A DNA stretch of 23,287 nt from NCBI GenBank assembly GCA_947588975.1, contig CANQAF010000012.1:1-23287 (forward strand). The letters are read 5' to 3'. Made by a program: the position numbers and the translations under genes. The notes below the pieces were generated by a model. That model was given only the letters and a program-made list of their open reading frames with translations, made no database searches and was not told the origin of the DNA. This DNA comes from an uncultured Bacilli bacterium (GTDB taxonomy: Bacteria > Bacillota_I > Bacilli_A > RF39 > UBA660). Positions 3,301-11,869 of this stretch are shown here, in pieces; the stretch's first letter is position 1; each line of letters opens with the position of its first letter.

Positions 3301-3720
3301 TTAAGAATTACATAATATTTTTTGCCTTAGTATTCTCAGTTCTGTTAACATATAATTTTTTTCATTATTGGAAGATGTACAAGATAATAACATTTGCTTC
3401 CTTTTTTTCATATCCTTTTCTTTTAATATTTTTAAATGTTCATTCCAAGAAATGTGTTTTAACATTTCTAAATTTTGATTGGAATACATTTGATAAAAAT
3501 GAATCATTGAGATAAAATTTCTAACTGTAAATCCAATTACAATACCATATATAGTTTGAAGTTCTCGTTCTAATATTTTAAGTTCACGTGATTGTAATTG
3601 TTTTTCTACCAAATAGCTACCAATTTTATAATATAGCAATATTACATCTTCATTAGAAATTTCATGTGATAACACATTTGTAATATATAAATTTATTTGT
3701 ATTACATATTCTTCTTGCAT
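3301..3720 (-). CDS. hypothetical protein resembling only the N-terminal domain of DUF1016/YhcG-type proteins
   Basis: 139-aa ORF with SD GAAGGAAG upstream. The segments LLYYKIGSYLVEKQ...ERELQTIYGIVIGFTVRNFISMIHFYQMY...ISWNEHLKILKEKDMKKRKQML resemble the DUF1016 N-terminal helical domain. No PD-(D/E)xK nuclease half follows. Confidence 0.4.
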   Translation of the reverse strand: MQEEYVIQINLYITNVLSHEISNEDVILLYYKIGSYLVEKQLQSRELKILERELQTIYGIVIGFTVRNFISMIHFYQMYSNQNLEMLKHISWNEHLKILKEKDMKKRKQMLLSCTSSNNEKNYMLTELRILRQKILCNS

Positions 3721-3850
3721 AATCCACTTCCTTCTTTATCAATATAGATGAAGTTAGACGATTTGTCAAAGTACAGATTTTATAAATTAGTAAAGAAAAA
3801 AATTCAGTTTTTTTAAATTGGCTTAACAAATTATTCCATTTAATACCTAT

Positions 3851-3891
3851 AAAAAAAGAATACATATTATTTGATAGCATTTTATGTATTC
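3851..3891 (-). terminator. rho-independent terminator of the small SOS-box ORF
   Basis: Minus strand reads GAATACATA-(16 nt loop)-TATGTATTC followed by TTTTTTT. It starts at the stop codon of the 45-aa ORF. Confidence 0.55.
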
Positions 3892-4052: not shown

Positions 4053-4081
4053 AGTTTACTACGAACAGTTGTTCGTGTCAA
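4053..4081 (-). promoter_or_regulatory. promoter of the 45-aa ORF (-35 TTGACA, 17-nt spacer, -10 TAAACT)
   Basis: On the minus strand, TTGACA is the complement of 4076-4081 and TAAACT is the complement of 4053-4058. The spacer, 4059-4075, contains LexA box 1. Confidence 0.5.
4062..4075. promoter_or_regulatory. LexA operator (Cheo box) 1
   Basis: CGAACAGTTGTTCG is a perfect CGAAC-N4-GTTCG palindrome, matching the Gram-positive LexA consensus. Confidence 0.8.
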
Positions 4082-4090
4082 TATAAAATT

Positions 4091-4104
4091 CGAACAAATG
4101 TTTG
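4091..4104. promoter_or_regulatory. LexA operator (Cheo box) 2, overlapping the lexA -35
   Basis: CGAACAAATGTTTG has one mismatch to CGAAC-N4-GTTCG and overlaps TTGACT at 4102-4107. Confidence 0.7.
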
Positions 4105-4130
4105 ACTTTTTGTCAACAATGTGTTAAAAT
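4102..4130 (+). promoter_or_regulatory. lexA promoter (-35 TTGACT, 17-nt spacer, extended -10 TGTTAAAAT)
   Basis: TTGACT at 4102-4107, TG at 4122-4123 and TAAAAT at 4125-4130. SD AGGAGG lies ahead of the ATG at 4159. Confidence 0.65.
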
Positions 4131-4158
4131 GTACTTGTAAATATAAAGGAGGTCTTAT

Positions 4159-4776
4159 ATGAAAGAACTGACAACTAGGCAAAAAGAAATATTGAACTTT
4201 ATCAAAAAGTATATTGCAACCCACGGTTATCCCCCAACAATTCGTGAAATTGGGGCAGCAACCGATACATCTTCTACTGCAACCATCCATGCGCATCTAA
4301 CAAATCTAGAAAAAAAAGGATTTATTCGTAAACAAGGAACAAAAAATAGAGCATTAGAATTATTAGTAGAAAATGAATTTGACCCAAAGAATGATTTAAT
4401 TATTGAAGTACCTTTACTAGGAAAAATTACAGCAGGTTCACCTATTGAAGCAATTGAACATCCAGATGAAACATTTGCTCTTCCATCTTATCTTGTTCCA
4501 AAAAACAAAGAAGTATTTACATTAAATGTAAGTGGTACTAGTATGATTAACGCTGGTATCTTAGATGGTGATGTTGTAATTGTAGAAAGACAAAATACAG
4601 CTCGTAACGGTCAAATTGTAGTTGCAATGACAGAAGAAAATGAAGTCACTTTAAAAACATTCTATAAAGAAGATGGATATATTAGATTACAACCAGAAAA
4701 TGATACAATGGATCCTATTATTGTAGACAATGTAACAATTTTAGGTATTGCAATTGGTTTATATCGTAAATTATAA
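4159..4776 (+). CDS. lexA: LexA repressor (SOS regulator, S24 autopeptidase)
   Basis: 205 aa. MKELTTRQKEILNFIKKYIATHGYPPTIREIG is a winged-HTH N-terminus. The C-terminal part has the S24 motifs VSGTSMINAGILDGD and LKTFYKE. The gene is autoregulated by the upstream Cheo boxes. Confidence 0.95.
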   Translation: MKELTTRQKEILNFIKKYIATHGYPPTIREIGAATDTSSTATIHAHLTNLEKKGFIRKQGTKNRALELLVENEFDPKNDLIIEVPLLGKITAGSPIEAIEHPDETFALPSYLVPKNKEVFTLNVSGTSMINAGILDGDVVIVERQNTARNGQIVVAMTEENEVTLKTFYKEDGYIRLQPENDTMDPIIVDNVTILGIAIGLYRKL

Positions 4777-6185: not shown

Positions 6186-6869
6186 TTATAATTTCTTTTT
6201 ACGTTTTTCATTATAATTTTTTAAAATTGCTTGAACATTTGGAAAGGCCTTCATAAGACGTTTTCCAAAATAGGATTTATTTGCAAGTACCATACGAACT
6301 CGTTTGGATATTTCCTCTGTACTATCTTTACGTATTGTAGTAGCAACTGTAGCTACTTTTTTAAAATTTAAAATTACATTAAATGAAATTAAATTATCCA
6401 ATAGATAAATCATAAATAAAATACATGCCAATATCGTCTGACCAATATTTGGAATATATGATATACAATGTAATATAAATGGATTCACGAAATAAATAAT
6501 AAGACATCCACAAAGTCCAAATGGAATCATAGTATCTAAACAAATACGTCCATTTATATTAAATTTAGTATGACTATAATCCCACCATCTTGCTTTAAAT
6601 ATTTTTTCCATAAAATAACTAGTCATATATTCTAATGTAGAACAGATAAGAATTGTCATAAAGAATAAAAGCCATGGATTATCTTGATATGCGCTTAAAA
6701 AATATATAATAAACAAAGCTCCAAATCCATAAATTGGACAATATGGACCAATCAAAAATCCACGATTGACTAATTTTTTATTCATAATTAAAGTATCAAT
6801 AATTTCCACTACCCAACCAATAAATGAATAAATAATGAATAATAAAAACCATATTTTTAAATCGTACAT
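6186..6869 (-). CDS. multi-pass membrane protein, PF06541-like (so-called putative ABC-transporter type IV family)
   Basis: Start reassigned to the ATG at 6869 (MYDLKIWFLLFIIYSFIGWVVEI...RGFLIGPYCPIYGFGA...WWDYS), which has SD GGAG 7 nt upstream. The track's extra 30 N-terminal residues have no SD. Confidence 0.65.
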   Translation of the reverse strand: MYDLKIWFLLFIIYSFIGWVVEIIDTLIMNKKLVNRGFLIGPYCPIYGFGALFIIYFLSAYQDNPWLLFFMTILICSTLEYMTSYFMEKIFKARWWDYSHTKFNINGRICLDTMIPFGLCGCLIIYFVNPFILHCISYIPNIGQTILACILFMIYLLDNLISFNVILNFKKVATVATTIRKDSTEEISKRVRMVLANKSYFGKRLMKAFPNVQAILKNYNEKRKKKL

Positions 6870-6947
6870 ATAATAACTCCGTCCTACTTCAGCTAGTCTT
6901 ACGTACCTAGTATAACATAATTTATAGAAAAAAGAAAATAAAATGCA

Positions 6948-6976
6948 TTGGCAACTCATTTATATTATGCTATAAT
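6948..6976 (+). promoter_or_regulatory. tRNA-Thr promoter (-35 TTGGCA, 17 nt, -10 TATAAT)
   Basis: TTGGCA at 6948-6953 and TATAAT at 6971-6976, 15 nt before the tRNA 5' end. Confidence 0.6.
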
Positions 6977-6991
6977 AAATTTGTTTTAAGC

Positions 6992-7065
6992 GCCGCCTTA
7001 GTTAAGTGGTATAACGGAGCCATGGTAAGGCTCAATTGTAAGTTCGATTCTTACAGGTGGCACCA
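6992..7065 (+). tRNA. tRNA-Thr (anticodon GGU), CCA encoded
   Basis: Hand-folded cloverleaf. Acceptor GCCGCCT/AGGTGGC, D stem GTTA/TAAC, anticodon stem GAGCC/GGCTC with loop A-T-GGT-A-A, T arm GTAAG-TTCGATT-CTTAC, discriminator A and CCA. Confidence 0.85.
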
Positions 7066-7075
7066 GATTGATACC

Positions 7076-7103
7076 AAACTCGGACTTTTATTGTTCGAGT
7101 TTT
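7076..7103 (+). terminator. tRNA-Thr terminator hairpin (part of module copy 1)
   Basis: 9-10 bp stem (one G-U pair), 7-nt loop, followed by TTTT. Confidence 0.6.
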
Positions 7104-7161
7104 AAAATGGTTCAAATTTATGTTATAATTTTTATAGGTTGAATTGATATATTTGTCAATT
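7101..7161 (+). promoter_or_regulatory. cassette 1 promoter plus downstream palindrome
   Basis: -35-like TTTAAA at 7101-7106, extended -10 TG-n-TATAAT at 7121-7129, and an 8-bp-arm inverted repeat starting 12 nt after the -10. Confidence 0.5.
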
Positions 7162-7222
7162 TAGAAAACATATTTGCATATTGTCAAAACAATATTTGCT
7201 TAAATTATTTTTGGAGGTTTTT

Positions 7223-7924
7223 ATGAGGAAATACAATTTAGCATTAAATGATATAACTTCTAATTATTTTCATTTTACTAAAGAAAATAATCTAAAATCT
7301 ATTTCCGAAAAAGGGTTATTACCCAAAATTTCATTTCATGCTCAATCCCTTGAAGATACTAAAAAAGTGTTTTTTGTTCAAGGACTAGATAATTTATTAG
7401 TTTTGTTTGATTGTTGGATAAATGTTTGTGAAAAATATCCTTTATTTCCTGGAATGTTTAATTTAGGAACTAAAATTATGAAATATAAATGGTTTCCTAA
7501 AAAAATTATAAATGGGTATTTTAAATATACAGAATATAATAAAATACACAGATTTGTATCCTATAAATATTTTGATAGGTTCTTAAAAAAATATGTATTA
7601 TTAAATTTAGAAATTGAAGAAAAAAAAGATTTTGATTTTAACGATATTGATCAAATTAAATCTAAAGGATATAATAAAGAATACTTAATACAAGGTGGTT
7701 ATTCATTAAAATACTCAGATTTAGAGTCAGTAAAAATGGATAAATGGAATTTACATACTTTTTCTAATCATGGAATTAATGCATCAAAGGTGAAACTTTG
7801 TTATGCAAATAGCTCTAGTAAGATGGTAGATATATTAAATTTTGCACTTAACAATACACATTTAAATATTAAAGATGTTTGTCCAATGCTTTGGAAATAT
7901 CTAAGAAGTAGAAAATTGCTTTAA
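7223..7924 (+). CDS. hypothetical protein, cassette 1. Speculative ADP-ribosyltransferase (DarT/DUF4433-like) motif order
   Basis: Start reassigned to the ATG at 7223, which has SD GGAGG at 7213-7217; the track's TTG at 7181 has none. 233 aa. NYFHFTKENNLKSISEKGLLP sits near the N-terminus, KKVFFVQG at residues 47-54, and NKEYLIQ places E at residue 153. Confidence 0.6.
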   Translation: MRKYNLALNDITSNYFHFTKENNLKSISEKGLLPKISFHAQSLEDTKKVFFVQGLDNLLVLFDCWINVCEKYPLFPGMFNLGTKIMKYKWFPKKIINGYFKYTEYNKIHRFVSYKYFDRFLKKYVLLNLEIEEKKDFDFNDIDQIKSKGYNKEYLIQGGYSLKYSDLESVKMDKWNLHTFSNHGINASKVKLCYANSSSKMVDILNFALNNTHLNIKDVCPMLWKYLRSRKLL

Positions 7925-7931
7925 AAAAGTT

Positions 7932-8070
7932 TTCGTACTTCTTCCTTTAGGGTACCAGATTGGTTGATACTCGGACTTTTATAGTTCGAGTTTTAAAATG
8001 CTTAAATTCATGATATAATTTTTATAGTTTGAATTGATATATTTATCAATTAAGAAAACACACTTCCATT
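7932..8070 (+). repeat. cassette-boundary module copy 2
   Basis: Degenerate tRNA T-loop/acceptor-like TTCGTACTTCTTCCTTTAGGGT, then ACCAGATTG at 7954-7962. Hairpin ACTCGGAC-TTTTATA-GTTCGAGT plus TTTT at 7969-7994. TGATATAAT at 8011-8019. Perfect palindrome AATTGATA-TATT-TATCAATT at 8032-8051. GAAAACA at 8054-8060. By eye, about nine in ten positions match copy 1 from the hairpin onward. Confidence 0.85.
7991..8051 (+). promoter_or_regulatory. cassette 2 promoter plus downstream palindrome
   Basis: T-run/-35-like element, extended -10 TGATATAAT, and a perfect 8-bp-arm inverted repeat 12 nt after the -10. Confidence 0.5.
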
Positions 8071-8192
8071 TTAACAACTAATATGTGTTTTATACTATTA
8101 ACCCTTAATAAACATTGACAAAAATATTAATTTATGATAACTGTTAAAGCAAAGGAAAATATGATAAAATAACATGTAATGAAAGGAGTATT

Positions 8193-8465
8193 ATGATGAT
8201 AATAGAAATTGGAGTGGGAATCGTATGTATTACTCCATTAGCAATACATATAGCTAAAACTAAAAATTGGAAATTTAAAACTAAAAAAGAAATTGATCAA
8301 TTTAGAAAACATAATAATTTTACAACAAATGAAACTTATGTTGATAATGATATGAATCTATCTAAAGCATTATCAAATTTTAGTATGAAAAATAAGGAAA
8401 TGGATAACTCAGAAAATGTTCAAGTAAAAAAGAAAACATTAGGGAAAATAGAGCAAAAAAAATAA
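8193..8465 (+). CDS. hypothetical small membrane protein, cassette 2
   Basis: 90 aa with SD AAAGGAG 6 nt upstream. N-terminal hydrophobic segment MMIIEIGVGIVCITPLAIHIA, followed by a Lys/Asn-rich hydrophilic tail. Confidence 0.55.
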   Translation: MMIIEIGVGIVCITPLAIHIAKTKNWKFKTKKEIDQFRKHNNFTTNETYVDNDMNLSKALSNFSMKNKEMDNSENVQVKKKTLGKIEQKK

Positions 8466-8494
8466 GATGTAAATTTAAAGAGGACTGTAGTCTA

Positions 8495-8633
8495 TACTAC
8501 TTACATTACTTACACCAGATTGATTGATACTCGAACTTTTTATAGTTCGAGTTTTAAAATATTTCAACATATGATAAAATATCATATAGATTCAATTGAT
8601 AAAATTTGTCAATTAAGAAAACATACTTGCAAA
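8495..8633 (+). repeat. cassette-boundary module copy 3
   Basis: CTTACATTACTTA precedes CACCAGATTG (8513-8522), which is identical to the 10 nt spanning the tRNA-Thr 3' end. Hairpin ACTCGAAC-TTTTTATA-GTTCGAGT plus TTTT at 8529-8555. TGATAAAAT at 8572-8580. AATTGATA-AAATT-TGTCAATT at 8594-8614. GAAAACATACTTGCA at 8617-8631. Confidence 0.8.
8552..8614 (+). promoter_or_regulatory. cassette 3 promoter plus downstream palindrome
   Basis: Extended -10 TG-n-TAAAAT. The inverted repeat has a 5-nt spacer and starts 13 nt after the -10. Confidence 0.45.
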
Positions 8634-8679
8634 TTTAGCATGTGACAATATGAATACTGATTATCTAGGAGGTATACAA

Positions 8680-9132
8680 ATGATAATTAGAAAAGCAAAT
8701 TATAATGATGTAAAAATATTAAATAATTTTTTAACGCTTTTAATACAAGATGAAAGACAATATGATTTAGGAATTGATGAAAATTTTATTGTAACTAATA
8801 TGTATGAAAATTATATTGAAGATTCTAATAAATTGATTGCCGTTGCCGAAGAAAATAATGAAATTATAGGTTATTTATATGGAATCATCAAACCAAAGGA
8901 TAATACATATCAATATATAATTGCCAAATTAGATGCATTATATGTTGATAATAATTATCGTAATCAGGGGATCGCTACCTCTTTAATAGAATATTTTAAA
9001 AAATGGGCTATATCAAAGAATGCTCACAAAATAGAAGTAAATGTATGGAGCAATAATATTAAGGCTAAACGCTTATATGAAAAAGCCAATTTCAAAACAA
9101 CAAGTGAAACATTAACTATTGATAATCTGTAA
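8680..9132 (+). CDS. GNAT-family N-acetyltransferase, cassette 3
   Basis: Start reassigned to the ATG at 8680, which has SD GGAGG at 8668-8672. 150 aa. LDALYVDNNYRNQGIATSLIEYFKKWA...NIKAKRLYEKANFK is the acetyl-CoA-binding R/Q-x-x-G-x-A motif A/B region of GNATs. Confidence 0.8.
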   Translation: MIIRKANYNDVKILNNFLTLLIQDERQYDLGIDENFIVTNMYENYIEDSNKLIAVAEENNEIIGYLYGIIKPKDNTYQYIIAKLDALYVDNNYRNQGIATSLIEYFKKWAISKNAHKIEVNVWSNNIKAKRLYEKANFKTTSETLTIDNL

Positions 9133-9140
9133 AATTGTTA

Positions 9141-9279
9141 TACTTCTTCCTTAGCAGGTATCTTAAAAATTGCAAACTCGAACCTTTATAGTTCGAGTTT
9201 TAAAATGAGCTAAATTACACTATAATTTTTCATGTAAATCCAATTGACAATATATGAACTACAAAAACACAATTATATT
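9141..9279 (+). repeat. cassette-boundary module copy 4 (most degenerate, no gene after it)
   Basis: TACTTCTTCCTTAGCAGGTA matches the left flank of copy 2. Hairpin AAACTCGAAC-CTTTATA-GTTCGAGTTT at 9174-9200. TATAAT at 9221-9226. Only one palindrome half, AATTGACA, at 9242-9249. CAAAAACA at 9262-9269. ACCAGATTG is replaced by TCTTAAAAATTG. Confidence 0.7.
9198..9249 (+). promoter_or_regulatory. promoter-like element of module copy 4 (orphan)
   Basis: TATAAT with T-run -35-like spacing, as in copies 1-3, but no downstream SD or ORF on the plus strand. Confidence 0.3.
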
Positions 9280-9579
9280 GTTTTACTCTATTTATTAGGT
9301 TTTACAAATTGCTTTTCTCTTTGTTGTTCGTTCCACTCTTTCTGAAGTTCTGGTATGATGAAAGTATCACCTATAGCATTAGAACATTCTATAATTTGAT
9401 ATGTATCATATTTTGGATCATACTCTTTATACTGTTTTAATAAATCTATGTATGATTTTACTCATATTTTCATTCATATATTCAAATTTTATTTGTGTGC
9501 TCCCTTTCTTTCAAAACAATTATTTATATGACTATATCATATTTGTACAAACGAAACATGTTTTTGTAAGTCAATATAC

Positions 9580-10236
9580 TTATTGAAATGACATGTAATG
9601 AACCCCTAACTTAGAATAAATATCATAGGCTCTTGGTAAATGCAATATTCTAGCAATCAAACAATTGTATATCTCATCCATCAAAAAAATAACACATAGA
9701 ACAATCGTAATCCATAAAAATATTTTAGGATTTATCTTTTTAGCGAGATAAAAACAAATTGGTACTAAACCATACATTAAAATAAGTCCAGAAATTCCAA
9801 AAAATAATACACTTCTTAGACAAACATAACCACCAATATTTCCAAAATTCCATATTTCTTGGTTATAATCCCAACATCGATCTCCAGCCCTAACAATATC
9901 CATAACAAAACCAGTAATAAATTCTAATATACCACATAATAACATACTAATAAAAAACACTTTTAAGGGATTTTTTCTTTTTTTATATGTAGTAAAATAA
10001 ATTGCAAGACTACCATAAGCATAAATATTAATCCATGGTAAAAAATGTCCTCCACGCCAATAAAATTGATTCATTCCCCCATTAATATAATAAAAAATAT
10101 ATTCATATAAAAATCCATAAATTCCAGTAGTAATGATCAATAAACATATGATTCCTAACATTGTCTTTTTATTAAAAGAATGATCATGTTCAATATAATC
10201 TTTATATTTTTCTTTCATATAATCTACTCCATTCAT
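9580..10236 (-). CDS. multi-pass membrane protein, PF06541-like; distant paralogue of 6186-6869
   Basis: 218 aa. Shares the family signature around ...CWDYNQEIWNFGNIGGYVCLRSVLFFG..., compared with ARWWDYSHTKFNINGRICLDTMIPFG in the other copy. Confidence 0.6.
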   Translation of the reverse strand: MNGVDYMKEKYKDYIEHDHSFNKKTMLGIICLLIITTGIYGFLYEYIFYYINGGMNQFYWRGGHFLPWINIYAYGSLAIYFTTYKKRKNPLKVFFISMLLCGILEFITGFVMDIVRAGDRCWDYNQEIWNFGNIGGYVCLRSVLFFGISGLILMYGLVPICFYLAKKINPKIFLWITIVLCVIFLMDEIYNCLIARILHLPRAYDIYSKLGVHYMSFQ

Positions 10237-10361
10237 ATTAATTCTATTATATAATAATCATGAAAAAAAAGAAAATAGTTACTCAAAAATTTTAAACATC
10301 AACATTCAAAAATATGAATTTGTTAAAATTTGTAATATAATGTTTAAAATTGATTTATTCG

Positions 10362-10370
10362 TGTTATAAT
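10362..10370 (+). promoter_or_regulatory. extended -10 (TGTTATAAT) promoter for tRNA-Lys
   Basis: TG-n-TATAAT lies 18 nt before the tRNA 5' end. The -35 is weak. Confidence 0.4.
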
Positions 10371-10388
10371 ATATATGTCATTTGACAT

Positions 10389-10464
10389 GTCCCGTTAGCT
10401 CAGCAGGTAGAGCATTTGACTTTTAATCAAAGGGTCACAGATTCGAATTCTGTACGGGACACCA
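10389..10464 (+). tRNA. tRNA-Lys (anticodon UUU), CCA encoded
   Basis: Acceptor GTCCCGT/ACGGGAC, D arm GCTC-AGCAGGTA-GAGC, anticodon stem TTTGA/TCAAA with loop C-T-TTT-A-A, T arm ACAGA-TTCGAAT-TCTGT. Confidence 0.9.
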
Positions 10465-10474
10465 TAATAAAAAT

Positions 10475-10503
10475 AAAATATTCCTATGATAGGAATATTT
10501 TTT
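10475..10503. terminator. bidirectional terminator between tRNA-Lys and murE
   Basis: AAAATATTCCT-ATGAT-AGGAATATTTT: 11-bp stem with A/T runs on both sides. Confidence 0.65.
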
Positions 10504-11869
10504 ATTGATCACTTGTAAAATTCATAACCTCTTCATAATCAGAAAAATGAATTTTTTCAGTTCCAATAATTTGATATGTTTCATGGCCTTTCCCTAATAT
10601 CAATAAAAGATCATTGTCTTTTAGTTTCTGTAACCCTTTTTCAATTGCTTTTCTTCTATCTATTTCTACTTCATAATTATTTTGGTGAACTCCTTTTAAT
10701 ATATCTTCTATAATTTGATTGGGATCTTCTGTTCTAGGATTATCACTGGTAAAAATGACATAATCACTTTTTTCTACTGCAATATGTCCCATAATTGGTC
10801 TTTTTAAAGGATCTCTATCCCCTCCACAACCTAAAATTGTAATCATTTGACCATTTTTATCTTTCATAAATGACGATAATATTTTATCAACTGCATCTGG
10901 TGTATGTGCATAATCAATGATTACTTCTCCATGTGGAAGTATAATTTGTTCACACCTTCCCTTAGGTGCAACTACTTGAATCGACAAATGAAGAATTGAT
11001 TCTACCGAATAACCTAAACTATGAACTATAGCTAAACTCATTAAAAAATTATATACATTAAATTCACTTCTTAAATTCGTATTTACTTGATATACATGTC
11101 CATCTACCGCAAAATCAATTTGCGTACCCCTATCTAATGATTGATAGTCCAACAAAGTATAATTGACACCCTGATACCCTAAAGATTTACTATTCGCAAT
11201 TAGAAATTGTTTCCCATTTGGATCATCAACATTTGTAATCATGATGCCATCTTTCTTTAATTGTTTCAATATACACAATTTAGATTGTAAATAATGGTTC
11301 ATATCTTTATGATAATCTAAATGATCTTCTGTCAAATTAGTAAATGCTCCCACACAATACTGAAGTCCTTCTACTCTATTTTGATCTAAGGCATGACTGG
11401 AAACTTCCATTACAAGATGCGTACATCCTGAATCAATTGCCTTTAGGCAACACTGATAAACATCTACTAATTGTGGTGTAGTATTTGCTAAAGGTATGAT
11501 TTCATCATTACAATAAAATCCAATTGTTCCCATATAAGCTACTTTTACCCCTAACAATTTTAATATTTGATAAGTTACAAAACAAGTTGTAGTTTTACCG
11601 TTCGTACCTGTAACACCAATTATTTTAAGTTTATTTACTTGATCTTGATAATGACTTACTATATAGTTTTGTAGCCATGTTTTTGTATCTTCTACTACAA
11701 TTGTTTCCACATCATAGTTTCCTTTTTCACAGACAATTTTAGAAGCACCTTTTTGAATTGCTTCTAAAATATAATCATGACCATCTACTGTATAACCTTT
11801 AATCGCAACAAAAGTATCACCTTTTTGAATGGTCCTAGAATCTGTTTTGATTGTTAACAAACGAATCAC
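10502..11869 (-). CDS. murE: UDP-N-acetylmuramoyl-L-alanyl-D-glutamate--2,6-diaminopimelate ligase (MurE)
   Basis: Mur ligase P-loop GVTGTNGKTTT and a C-terminal TSDNPRTEDP. The DNPR motif is typical of meso-DAP-adding MurE. The start is uncertain. The track's GTG at 11869 lies inside an AGGTGA SD-like sequence, so the TTG at 11860 is an equally good start. Confidence 0.85.
   Translation of the reverse strand: MIRLLTIKTDSRTIQKGDTFVAIKGYTVDGHDYILEAIQKGASKIVCEKGNYDVETIVVEDTKTWLQNYIVSHYQDQVNKLKIIGVTGTNGKTTTCFVTYQILKLLGVKVAYMGTIGFYCNDEIIPLANTTPQLVDVYQCCLKAIDSGCTHLVMEVSSHALDQNRVEGLQYCVGAFTNLTEDHLDYHKDMNHYLQSKLCILKQLKKDGIMITNVDDPNGKQFLIANSKSLGYQGVNYTLLDYQSLDRGTQIDFAVDGHVYQVNTNLRSEFNVYNFLMSLAIVHSLGYSVESILHLSIQVVAPKGRCEQIILPHGEVIIDYAHTPDAVDKILSSFMKDKNGQMITILGCGGDRDPLKRPIMGHIAVEKSDYVIFTSDNPRTEDPNQIIEDILKGVHQNNYEVEIDRRKAIEKGLQKLKDNDLLLILGKGHETYQIIGTEKIHFSDYEEVMNFTSDQ

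Follow-up and report, generated by a model that had tools for sequence, protein, structure and literature searches.

Probable integrase-less, single-gene integrative cassettes at the 3' CCA ends of tRNA and tmRNA genes in gut Bacilli

The window analysed here is a 23,287-nt stretch of low-GC (~28%) Firmicute chromosomal DNA from an uncultured Bacilli bacterium (contig CANQAF010000012.1), which encodes LexA, QueH, MurC, a sortase and other housekeeping proteins and carries, behind a tRNA-Thr(GGU) gene, an array of three small genes each headed by a copy of one conserved module. On balance, we favour reading the three genes and their modules as miniature integrative cassettes without an integrase, stacked behind the 3' CCA of this tRNA gene; they would be moved by a site-specific recombinase acting in trans and shuffled by homologous recombination. 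Such cassettes share one anatomy, with borders running from the CCA of the tRNA to a CACCA of their own, are mobile between tRNA genes, species and strains, use a broad range of target genes and lack a recombinase in cis. An earlier prediction from the letters of the window (the original prediction) had proposed cassettes tied to tRNA-Thr; the cassettes are supported by what follows, but not the tie, given that their targets comprise 16 tRNA and transfer-messenger RNA (tmRNA) identities.

Organisation of the array at tRNA-Thr(GGU)

The tRNA-Thr(GGU) gene (6992..7065, plus strand; ARAGORN; Rfam tRNA, 63.5 bits) is intact and terminates in ..GGCACCA, an attB-like end that anchors the array. Three open reading frames (ORFs) follow on the same strand. 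Cassette 1 (7066..7957, 892 nt) comprises module 1, a variable leader, a Shine-Dalgarno (SD) sequence GGAGG, a 233-aa ORF (7223-7924) and a pseudo-tRNA end, ..GTTTTCGTACTTCTTCCTTTAGGGTACCA; cassette 2 (7958..8517, 560 nt) comprises module 2, a long leader, a 90-aa ORF (8193-8465) with a hydrophobic segment at the N-terminus, and a degenerate tRNA-like end, ..CTACTTACATTACTTACACCA; and cassette 3 (8518..9163, ~646 nt) comprises module 3, a 150-aa GNAT protein (8680-9132; Pfam Acetyltransf_1, 3e-18) and a decayed pseudo-end, GTTATACTTCTTCCTTAGCAGGTAT, without CCA. The 233-aa and 90-aa proteins have no Pfam match. A fourth module copy (9164..9290, plus strand) has no gene after it; its hairpin is intact, its -10 element lacks the TG, and its palindrome and leader are degenerate. 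It is the decaying distal end of the array, and comparable degenerate array ends are seen at other loci.

The four module copies, spaced 891, 561 and 646 nt from start to start, align over ~170 nt with a mean column identity of 75%, and the 31-nt hairpin pattern occurs three times in the window against 0.00 expected from 100 shuffles. The repeats, hairpins, -10 elements and palindromes that the original prediction had placed at this tRNA are all found at those positions, and the three single ORFs between the copies are unrelated, as it described. It also had each of the four copies begin with a repeat of the tRNA end, which is correct for copies 1-3 (CACCAGATTG at 7061-7070 and 8513-8522, TACCAGATTG at 7953-7962) but not for the decaying fourth, which has no ACCA (GGTATCTTAAAAATTGC). 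Similarly, the sequences preceding copies 2-4 are degenerate and tRNA-like, as it had noted, but they are not this tRNA-Thr's own end and belong to two families that travel with the cassettes. The other two tRNA genes of the window (Lys and Arg) terminate in CACCA, are followed by unrelated AT-rich DNA, and are therefore empty sites.

Structure of the module

The module measures ~135-170 nt and is made up of a hairpin with a T-run, a TTTAAA/TGnTATAAT site and a 5'-untranslated region (5'-UTR) with two hairpins. In module 1 the terminator-like hairpin (7076..7102, plus strand) reads AAACTCGGAC-TTTTATT-GTTCGAGTTT, then a T-run, and folds as RNA with -13.3 kcal/mol (z = -3.9); its general form, A[A/T]ACTCGRAC-N7/8-GTTCGAGTTT, recurs at 7967-7993, 8527-8554 and 9174-9200, and across 82 copies 97.6% of cells are paired, with a G.U/A-U alternation (69 G.U versus 13 A-U at one pair) that confines the function of this hairpin to the plus strand. 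A promoter scan placed a promoter-like site at 7101..7129 (plus strand), with TTTAAA, 17 nt and the extended -10 TGTTATAAT; modules 2 and 3 have their counterparts at 7992-8019 and 8553-8580, the fourth copy has a weak one at 9199-9226, and the gap from TTTAAA to TGnTATAAT is 16-17 nt. The extended -10 itself, TGnTATAAT or TGATAAAAT, is found at 7121-7129, 8011-8019 and 8572-8580, and CACTATAAT at 9218-9226; the TG and the -10 hexamer are conserved across the 82 aligned copies. The conserved 5'-UTR of module 1 (7142..7199, plus strand) contains hairpin 1, AATTGATA-TATT-TGTCAATT, followed by TAGAAAACAYAYTT and hairpin 2, GCATATTG-loop-CAATAT... Hairpin 1 corresponds to the palindrome, present at 7142-7161, 8032-8051 and 8594-8614 and degenerate at 9242-9260. 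Cargo-specific sequence starts in or after the loop of hairpin 2, with cargo-linked identity beginning just past ..ATTGACAA.

The original prediction took this palindrome for an operator. The palindrome is there, but its wobble pairs suit the plus strand only, one pair occurring as 71 U.G, 5 U-A and 3 C-G. Since an alternation of U.G, U-A and C-G functions on that strand alone, a protein operator is unlikely and an RNA hairpin in the 5'-UTR is the likelier reading. No double compensatory changes were seen in the palindrome, and RNA structure is therefore unproven by covariation; the pseudo-ends have no significant secondary structure (z ~0). Most likely, the module serves mainly for expression, in that it would insulate the cassette from upstream transcription, promote transcription of the cargo and stabilise its mRNA. 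It may also, or instead, hold binding sites for a recombinase. No known RNA family accounts for it, as Rfam searches returned only tRNAs and two weak chance matches at E<=1 over 6800-10600, and only tRNA, tmRNA and one glmS at the gathering threshold over 19 related loci. At the glmS locus (L032:5348-5621), a partial module with pseudo-end, hairpin and promoter, and without the palindrome leader, lies directly 5' of the glmS ribozyme (Rfam, 79.5 bits); its promoter may have been co-opted for a housekeeping gene.

Distribution of the module and its target genes

When 185,579 species genomes were scanned for the hairpin arm combined with the palindrome, 91 loci matched, and a profile derived from ten copies confirmed the module in 88 of these. 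These 88 loci represent 67 species known from metagenome-assembled genomes (MAGs), 64 of them from one rabbit-gut ('Lapin') data set and labelled uncultured Bacilli (a few as Clostridia); the remaining three are an uncultured Clostridia MAG, a Hadza human-gut MAG and an Erysipelotrichales MAG. Within one MAG, CANRCC01, at least 10 module copies are spread over 6 loci. Conservation of the module is 85-99% at nearly all positions, including the loops. No match to it was found in IMG/VR viral contigs, INPHARED phages or PLSDB plasmids, and three matches in JGI metagenomes were due to chance, so a phage or plasmid origin was rejected.

In 65 cases an intact tRNA or tmRNA gene, co-oriented with the module, immediately precedes it, and the genes concerned have 16 identities: Thr-CGU, Thr-GGU, tmRNA, Leu-UAG/CAA/UAA/GAG, Arg-CCU/UCU, Ala, Glu, Met, Phe, Lys-UUU/CUU and Tyr. 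The occupied termini are CACCA (62/65) or TACCA (3/65). Among 26 terminal tRNA or tmRNA genes free of modules in the same loci, 21 end in YACCA; none of the five terminal genes with other ends (AGCCA in three, GACCA and CGCCA in one each) is occupied. Counting both real ends (the 65 cases) and pseudo-ends, ACCA precedes more than 90% of the module copies. Copies inside arrays follow two or three kinds of degenerate tRNA 3' half, which also terminate in CACCA; type 1, AAAGTTGTCGTACTTCTTCCTTTAGGGCACCA, resembles the end of tRNA-Leu(GAG) (locus L100), and type 2, AAGTTGTAGATAACTACGTCATTCGCACCA, those of tRNA-Thr(GGU) in other species (L044). Behind tRNA-Thr(GGT), at least eight different first cassettes are found across species and strains. 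A generic intergenic repeat with no tie to tRNA ends or to variable cargo would have spoken against cassettes; the module, though spread genome-wide, stands after ACCA in the proportion given above and its cargo falls into 53 families.

Some cassette-free tRNA and tmRNA genes are followed by conserved short 'trailers', as at L025 (tRNA-Phe), L094 (tmRNA), L030 (tRNA-Met), L040 (tRNA-Ala) and L112:938-1000 (tRNA-Lys). They take the form CACCA-TTGRNRWWTCTRTTCGAAC..TTCGAA..TATAG or ..ACTCGG-N4-6-CGAGTAAAAATAGAAA, and many arrays are closed by the same trailers, which may represent scars or else the element without cargo.

A second repeated unit, of which the window has none, often follows arrays or trailers (L075, L014, L015, L030, L031, L060, L064, L069, L077, L088 and L112:960-1260). 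Its 15 copies, four of them in tandem in L088, contain a promoter-like ACTTGCAAAAAGTTCT..TGTTATGAT, a ~110-nt two-hairpin RNA with terminator, and a convergent ORF with a strong SD for a 30-aa hydrophobic peptide (MKTKTFILKVLKLITIILFLLIIMIVVIKK in L075) that has no Pfam match. The unit looks like a type I toxin-antitoxin pair, and its position recalls, by analogy, the toxin-antitoxin cassettes that stabilise integron arrays.

Identical units behind different tRNA genes

Across loci, the order within a unit is constant: a terminator hairpin comes first, then the extended -10 promoter, the hairpins of the 5'-UTR, a variable leader, one ORF (rarely two) and a pseudo-tRNA 3' end terminating in ..CACCA, over a total of 0.56-1.5 kb. 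The sequence (G)GCACCA stands at both unit borders, the distal one lying inside the degenerate tRNA 3' half. That such units move as wholes is best seen in L037 (tRNA-Thr-CGU, Lapin-027 bin78) and L076 (tRNA-Thr-GGU, Lapin-028 bin3), which are 100% identical over 626 nt, starting with the base right after the tRNA CCA and ending at the cassette's own ..GGGGCACCA, with differing tRNAs upstream and unrelated flanks on both sides. They also have in common the rare module 5'-end variants GGAAGCTCGGAC and loop TTTTGTAA, and the crossover must therefore have been at or next to CACCA. Consistent with this pair, L024 (tRNA-Ala) and L040 (at a tRNA-Thr end) differ by 1 nt over ~450 nt in a match that begins at CACCA, and L014/L075, L048/L053 and L045/L049 are 95-97% identical and match from ..GCACCA onward. 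Crossovers could not be mapped from the ends of BLAST matches, because the conserved module carries every alignment up to the CCA regardless of the recombination point, and only near-identical pairs are informative.

Two loci depart from the usual arrangement. At L112:1320-1420 is a cassette seemingly without a gene, whose partial leader (TTTAGAAAACACACTTGCATATTGTCG..) runs into a type-1 pseudo-end and the next module. At L040:5642-7540, a full tRNA-Thr(GGT) gene is followed by a 1.77-kb insert (a 347-aa gene, no integrase), a 45-nt repeat of the tRNA 3' part, and then a module and cassette. This insert is a classical insertion of the anticodon-loop type that displaced an existing cassette array from its tRNA, which indicates that these tRNA ends are general integration hot spots.

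Strain variation at the window locus

Sister strains were found by exact-protein look-up of the flanking PF06541 proteins and the cargo proteins, which gave forms with three and with five cassettes only. The array of the window recurs in several independent assemblies, and the five-cassette form, in L001 and two similar contigs, encodes in order proteins of 197 aa, 233 aa, 277 aa (weakly PP2C-like) and 91 aa and the GNAT protein; cassette 2 is present in every strain seen. Between the window and L001 the flanks are 98.7-98.9% identical, and the common 233-aa cassette, at array position 2 in L001, is 95.5% identical. The additional cassettes of L001 occupy position 1 and one internal position and have borders like all others, the breakpoints of the indels being concealed within modules. 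A fixed locus, identical in all relatives, would have spoken against cassettes; the sister strain instead has five where the window has three, and identical cassettes lie behind different tRNAs.

The left-flank bait (6186..6869, minus strand) is a 227-aa PF06541 membrane protein, identical in four to six other assemblies. A second PF06541 protein, of 212 aa, lies on the right (9580..10218, minus strand) and, with 31% identity to the left one, is a distant paralogue. Between the terminal module and this gene, a small disrupted ORF on the minus strand (9290-9500), convergent with the array, would encode ~62 aa if one stop is ignored (MNENMSKIIHRFIK*..KEYDPKYDTYQIIECSNAIGDTF..), with a weak, sub-threshold Pfam match. 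Short ORFs also lie beside lexA (3301-3880 and 4078-4296), and one 139-aa protein there matches only the N-terminal domain of DUF1016 and may be a fragmented gene.

Cargo

The 85 ORFs found downstream of modules, which make up the 53 families, are mostly small enzymes. Pfam matches include GNAT, radical SAM, TatD, peptide deformylase, MatE, ADP-ribosylglycohydrolase, nucleoside hydrolase, peptidase C26, CYTH, NUDIX, GT2, Ppx/GppA, HAD, nucleoside deoxyribosyltransferase and Pol-beta nucleotidyltransferase, among others, and PADLOC assigned cargo to about eight defence families, e.g. pVip-like radical SAM, PDC-S19, QatD and RmrA. The only recombinase that Pfam detected among the cargo was one IS200 transposase, which is an unrelated insertion sequence (IS). 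Cargo families are not bound to one tRNA: a 201-aa NUDIX protein follows Leu-CAA, Thr-CGU and Lys-CUU in different species, and homologs of the GNAT cargo of the window stand directly behind tRNA-Glu (L010) and tmRNA (L018).

The 233-aa cargo has 172 homologs with 53-91% identity, and its well-conserved family, which has no Pfam match, shows the invariant residues H17-F18-T19, H39, D56 and D63-C64-W65. An 81% homolog lies behind tRNA-Glu(UUC) with a diverged hairpin, and a 65% homolog belongs to an ordinary operon of other Bacilli, where neither a tRNA nor a module is near, as expected of a captured gene. The AlphaFold2 model of the 233-aa protein (pLDDT 87) had no significant match in the PDB; the best were weak ones to DarT1 and Tpt1/KptA, of the ADP-ribosyltransferase fold (E>=0.5).

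Search for a mobilising enzyme

The original prediction had found no recombinase in the window, and a Pfam scan of its 20 largest ORFs likewise detected no recombinase domain. In the 88 related loci (8 kb each), a motif screen and an HMM from 120 integrase homologs, the latter run on all ORFs of 80 aa or more, yielded a single tyrosine integrase, in L088 (L088:77-1195; Arm-DNA-bind_4, SAM_3 and Phage_integrase domains); a displaced tRNA end, CCCTTCACTCGCACCA, and a module follow it directly. One large serine recombinase lies in L072, 3 kb from a module. The L088 enzyme was rejected as the mobiliser, as no link was found: its homologs are standard prophage integrases that abut tRNA-Gln or tRNA-Arg and have no module nearby. 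Mobilisation of the IS200/IS605 kind was also rejected. The sole Y1 transposase seen (139 aa) belongs to an IS200/IS605-type element with GC-rich hairpins at L068:1530-2080, an ordinary IS inserted after TTAC inside a module leader; the cassettes have a left hairpin, but their pseudo-ends have none.

Proposed mechanism and alternatives

In the mechanism that we favour, a cassette would circularise and thereby join its pseudo-end, CACCA and module into an attP-like site of ~175 nt. Indirect support for such excision and re-integration comes from the identical units at different sites. A recombinase whose gene lies elsewhere in the genome, most likely of the tyrosine type, would act on this site and on the ..YACCA terminus of a tRNA or tmRNA gene, or on the CACCA of a resident cassette, with crossover at CACCA or within a few nt of it. 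The tRNA would be kept intact, older cassettes would be displaced distally and arrays would accumulate. As all modules are alike, homologous recombination between them would also delete, swap and mosaic cassettes.

Several findings weigh against this mechanism, beginning with the enzyme search, in which recombinases turned up in only two of the 88 loci and in none of the window ORFs scanned. The exact border repeat, or common core, is only 5-7 nt. In 30 pairs with the same cargo and different upstream context, module identity was not above that of random pairs, and some shared segments break in the hairpin (L028/L084) or at the module 3' end (L015/L077, which have the same tRNA and module and different cargo). 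This mosaicism and the internal breakpoints indicate that homologous recombination between modules is active, and it could account for part of the pattern. The assemblies compared contained no circular form and no precise pair of empty and occupied sites within one strain, and the model leaves unaccounted for the trailer hairpins of cassette-free tRNAs, conserved across different tRNAs. Finally, the comparisons were all made on metagenome assemblies, where mis-joins can arise from a repeat of 135 nt; the array of the window itself is, however, reproduced in several independent ones.

Of the alternatives, the one that survives best, although we judge it unlikely, does without a dedicated recombinase. 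The module would be a conserved regulatory repeat, and cassettes would move solely by RecA-dependent loop-out and Campbell-type re-insertion or by exchange after DNA uptake; juxtaposition to tRNAs would come from rare microhomology joins at GCACCA (homology-facilitated illegitimate recombination), kept only if the tRNA survives. The likeness of the modules over 135 nt suffices for homologous recombination, and the mosaic modules unlinked to cargo, the breakpoints just mentioned, those hidden in modules between the window and L001, and the outcome of the enzyme search all fit. However, the two youngest events are identical up to the first base after CCA, rare 5' variants included, and a homologous crossover would need to fall inside 5-7 nt. 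Moreover, the 65 junctions with 16 kinds of tRNA and tmRNA are all exactly at YACCA, and for homologous recombination the tRNA-like end of the cassette would be superfluous.

It is improbable that the arrays are immobile fossils, left when ordinary islands or prophages with an integrase had accreted at tRNA genes and been stripped down to one gene and att repeats. Independent decay would not give a uniform design, with module on the left and pseudo-end on the right, over 53 cargo families, nor units that are 100% or 99.8% identical while standing at different tRNAs and in different species, even if classical insertion does occur at the same sites (the L040 insert with its 45-nt tRNA-Thr 3' repeat) and a prophage-type integrase lies beside a displaced tRNA end and a module in L088. 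Type-2 pseudo-ends do resemble displaced tRNA-Thr(GGT) halves, but the pseudo-ends of the array cannot pair with the 5' acceptor strand of this tRNA-Thr and hence never completed it.

Another transposition chemistry is very improbable, be it HUH/Y1 single-strand transposition of the IS200/IS605 kind through the hairpins 3' of CACCA or the joining of a reverse-transcribed, CCA-ended transcript to the tRNA end. A hairpin does lie 10-13 nt from the left end of the element, insertion is 3' of a fixed pentanucleotide with no target duplication beyond it, the structures are strand-specific and the cassette terminus is tRNA-like (..ACCA); against this, the pseudo-tRNA at the right end has no significant hairpin, the only Y1 transposase belongs to the ordinary IS in L068, no reverse transcriptase was seen among the cargo, and a 5-nt target alone would not confine insertion to tRNA ends. 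Local duplication of a terminator-promoter-operator region with merely co-regulated genes, the alternative that the original prediction had itself offered, would suit four similar copies within 2.3 kb but is hardly credible, as the modules of the window and L001 share 83-89% identity with neighbours in the array and 86-97% with their best matches in other species, which excludes duplication in place, and as the module is found at many loci in 67 species with cassette content that varies by strain.

Broader interpretation

Beyond the single array, we tentatively propose, as an idea that we find slightly easier to doubt than to accept, a gene-capture platform of gut Bacilli analogous to integrons. 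Any CACCA-ended tRNA or tmRNA gene would serve as an attI-like dock, and hundreds of standardised 'plug-and-play' cassettes, each with terminator, promoter, stabilising 5'-UTR, single gene and tRNA-mimicking end, would be exchanged within and between species by a dedicated recombinase that reads a tRNA-like 3' end and not one sequence. If true, the cassettes would make up a new mobile-element class whose site is defined and ~175 nt long, and their recombinase would have an unusual, tRNA-shape-like range of 16 targets. The platform would also provide a catalogue of accessory genes, some defence-like, under current exchange in a gut community, make the module a natural portable terminator-promoter-UTR part for low-GC bacteria, and help to explain the high variability of tRNA-proximal regions in small genomes.

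Comparison with known systems

A full-text literature search found no published description of this arrangement. Prophage 'morons' are self-contained promoter-gene-terminator units of accessory cargo, without a common module, a tRNA-like end or a defined insertion site. The Correia, RUP and BOX elements, which are miniature inverted-repeat transposable elements (MITEs), are clade-conserved intergenic repeats of ~100-150 nt that affect transcription of their neighbours, with no gene and no tie to tRNA ends. MITEs end in inverted repeats and are flanked by target-site duplications; the unit ends here (GATTGATACC.. and ..TTTAGGGCACCA) are not inverted repeats, and every unit has an ORF.

The closest mechanistic relatives are elements of the cis-mobilisable (CIME) type with their tandem accretion, tycheposons and ssrA islands. 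CIMEs, in tandem accretion with integrative and conjugative or integrative and mobilisable elements (ICEs, IMEs; PMC5704250), share with the cassettes the tRNA 3' end, att-type direct repeats, lack of an own integrase, tandem arrays and presumed mobilisation in trans, but they measure kb to tens of kb, derive from a specific ICE and use one attB with a 20-60-nt repeat, whereas the cassettes have 16 targets. Insertion that leaves the gene intact, the mark of tRNA targeting, is seen at all 65 junctions. The tycheposons of Prochlorococcus (bioRxiv 10.1101/2020.12.28.424599) are likewise cargo elements at several tRNA and tmRNA genes, where newcomers displace older elements distally, with partial tRNAs in between, and a tRNA 'seed' gives rise to a growing variable island; they have, however, their own tRNA-specific tyrosine recombinase and replication genes and number 1-2 per genome, whereas the cassettes have neither and share one common module in many copies. 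The ssrA islands of Dehalococcoides (PMC3146451) also stand in tandem at the tmRNA gene, repeats of whose 3' end delimit them, but are large, encode their own recombinase and have a single target.

With integrons and attC clusters that have no integron integrase (CALIN), the arrays share co-oriented, mostly single-gene mobile cassettes at a fixed anchor with a conserved recombination-site-like repeat between them, diverse small accessory enzymes such as GNAT and NUDIX proteins, and toxin-antitoxin-like units beside the arrays. CALIN arrays can, like the cassettes here, be without a nearby integrase, and genomes of Firmicutes or Tenericutes yielded no complete integron (PMC4889954). In contrast to integrons, intI is absent from the window ORFs scanned, and the related loci have only the prophage-type integrase of L088; there is no attC (R''/L'' and L'/R' boxes, RYYYAAC...GTTRRRY), the palindromes being only 10-7-10 and 8-4-8 hairpins; each cassette has its own terminator and TGnTATAAT, whereas integron cassettes are mostly promoterless and use a common Pc; and the anchor is the CCA end of many tRNA and tmRNA genes, not one attI. 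The system is thus integron-like in logic but not an integron. Integrons are the textbook case of single-gene capture, and the present locus suggests that a clade of gut Bacilli has reached the same end by another route.

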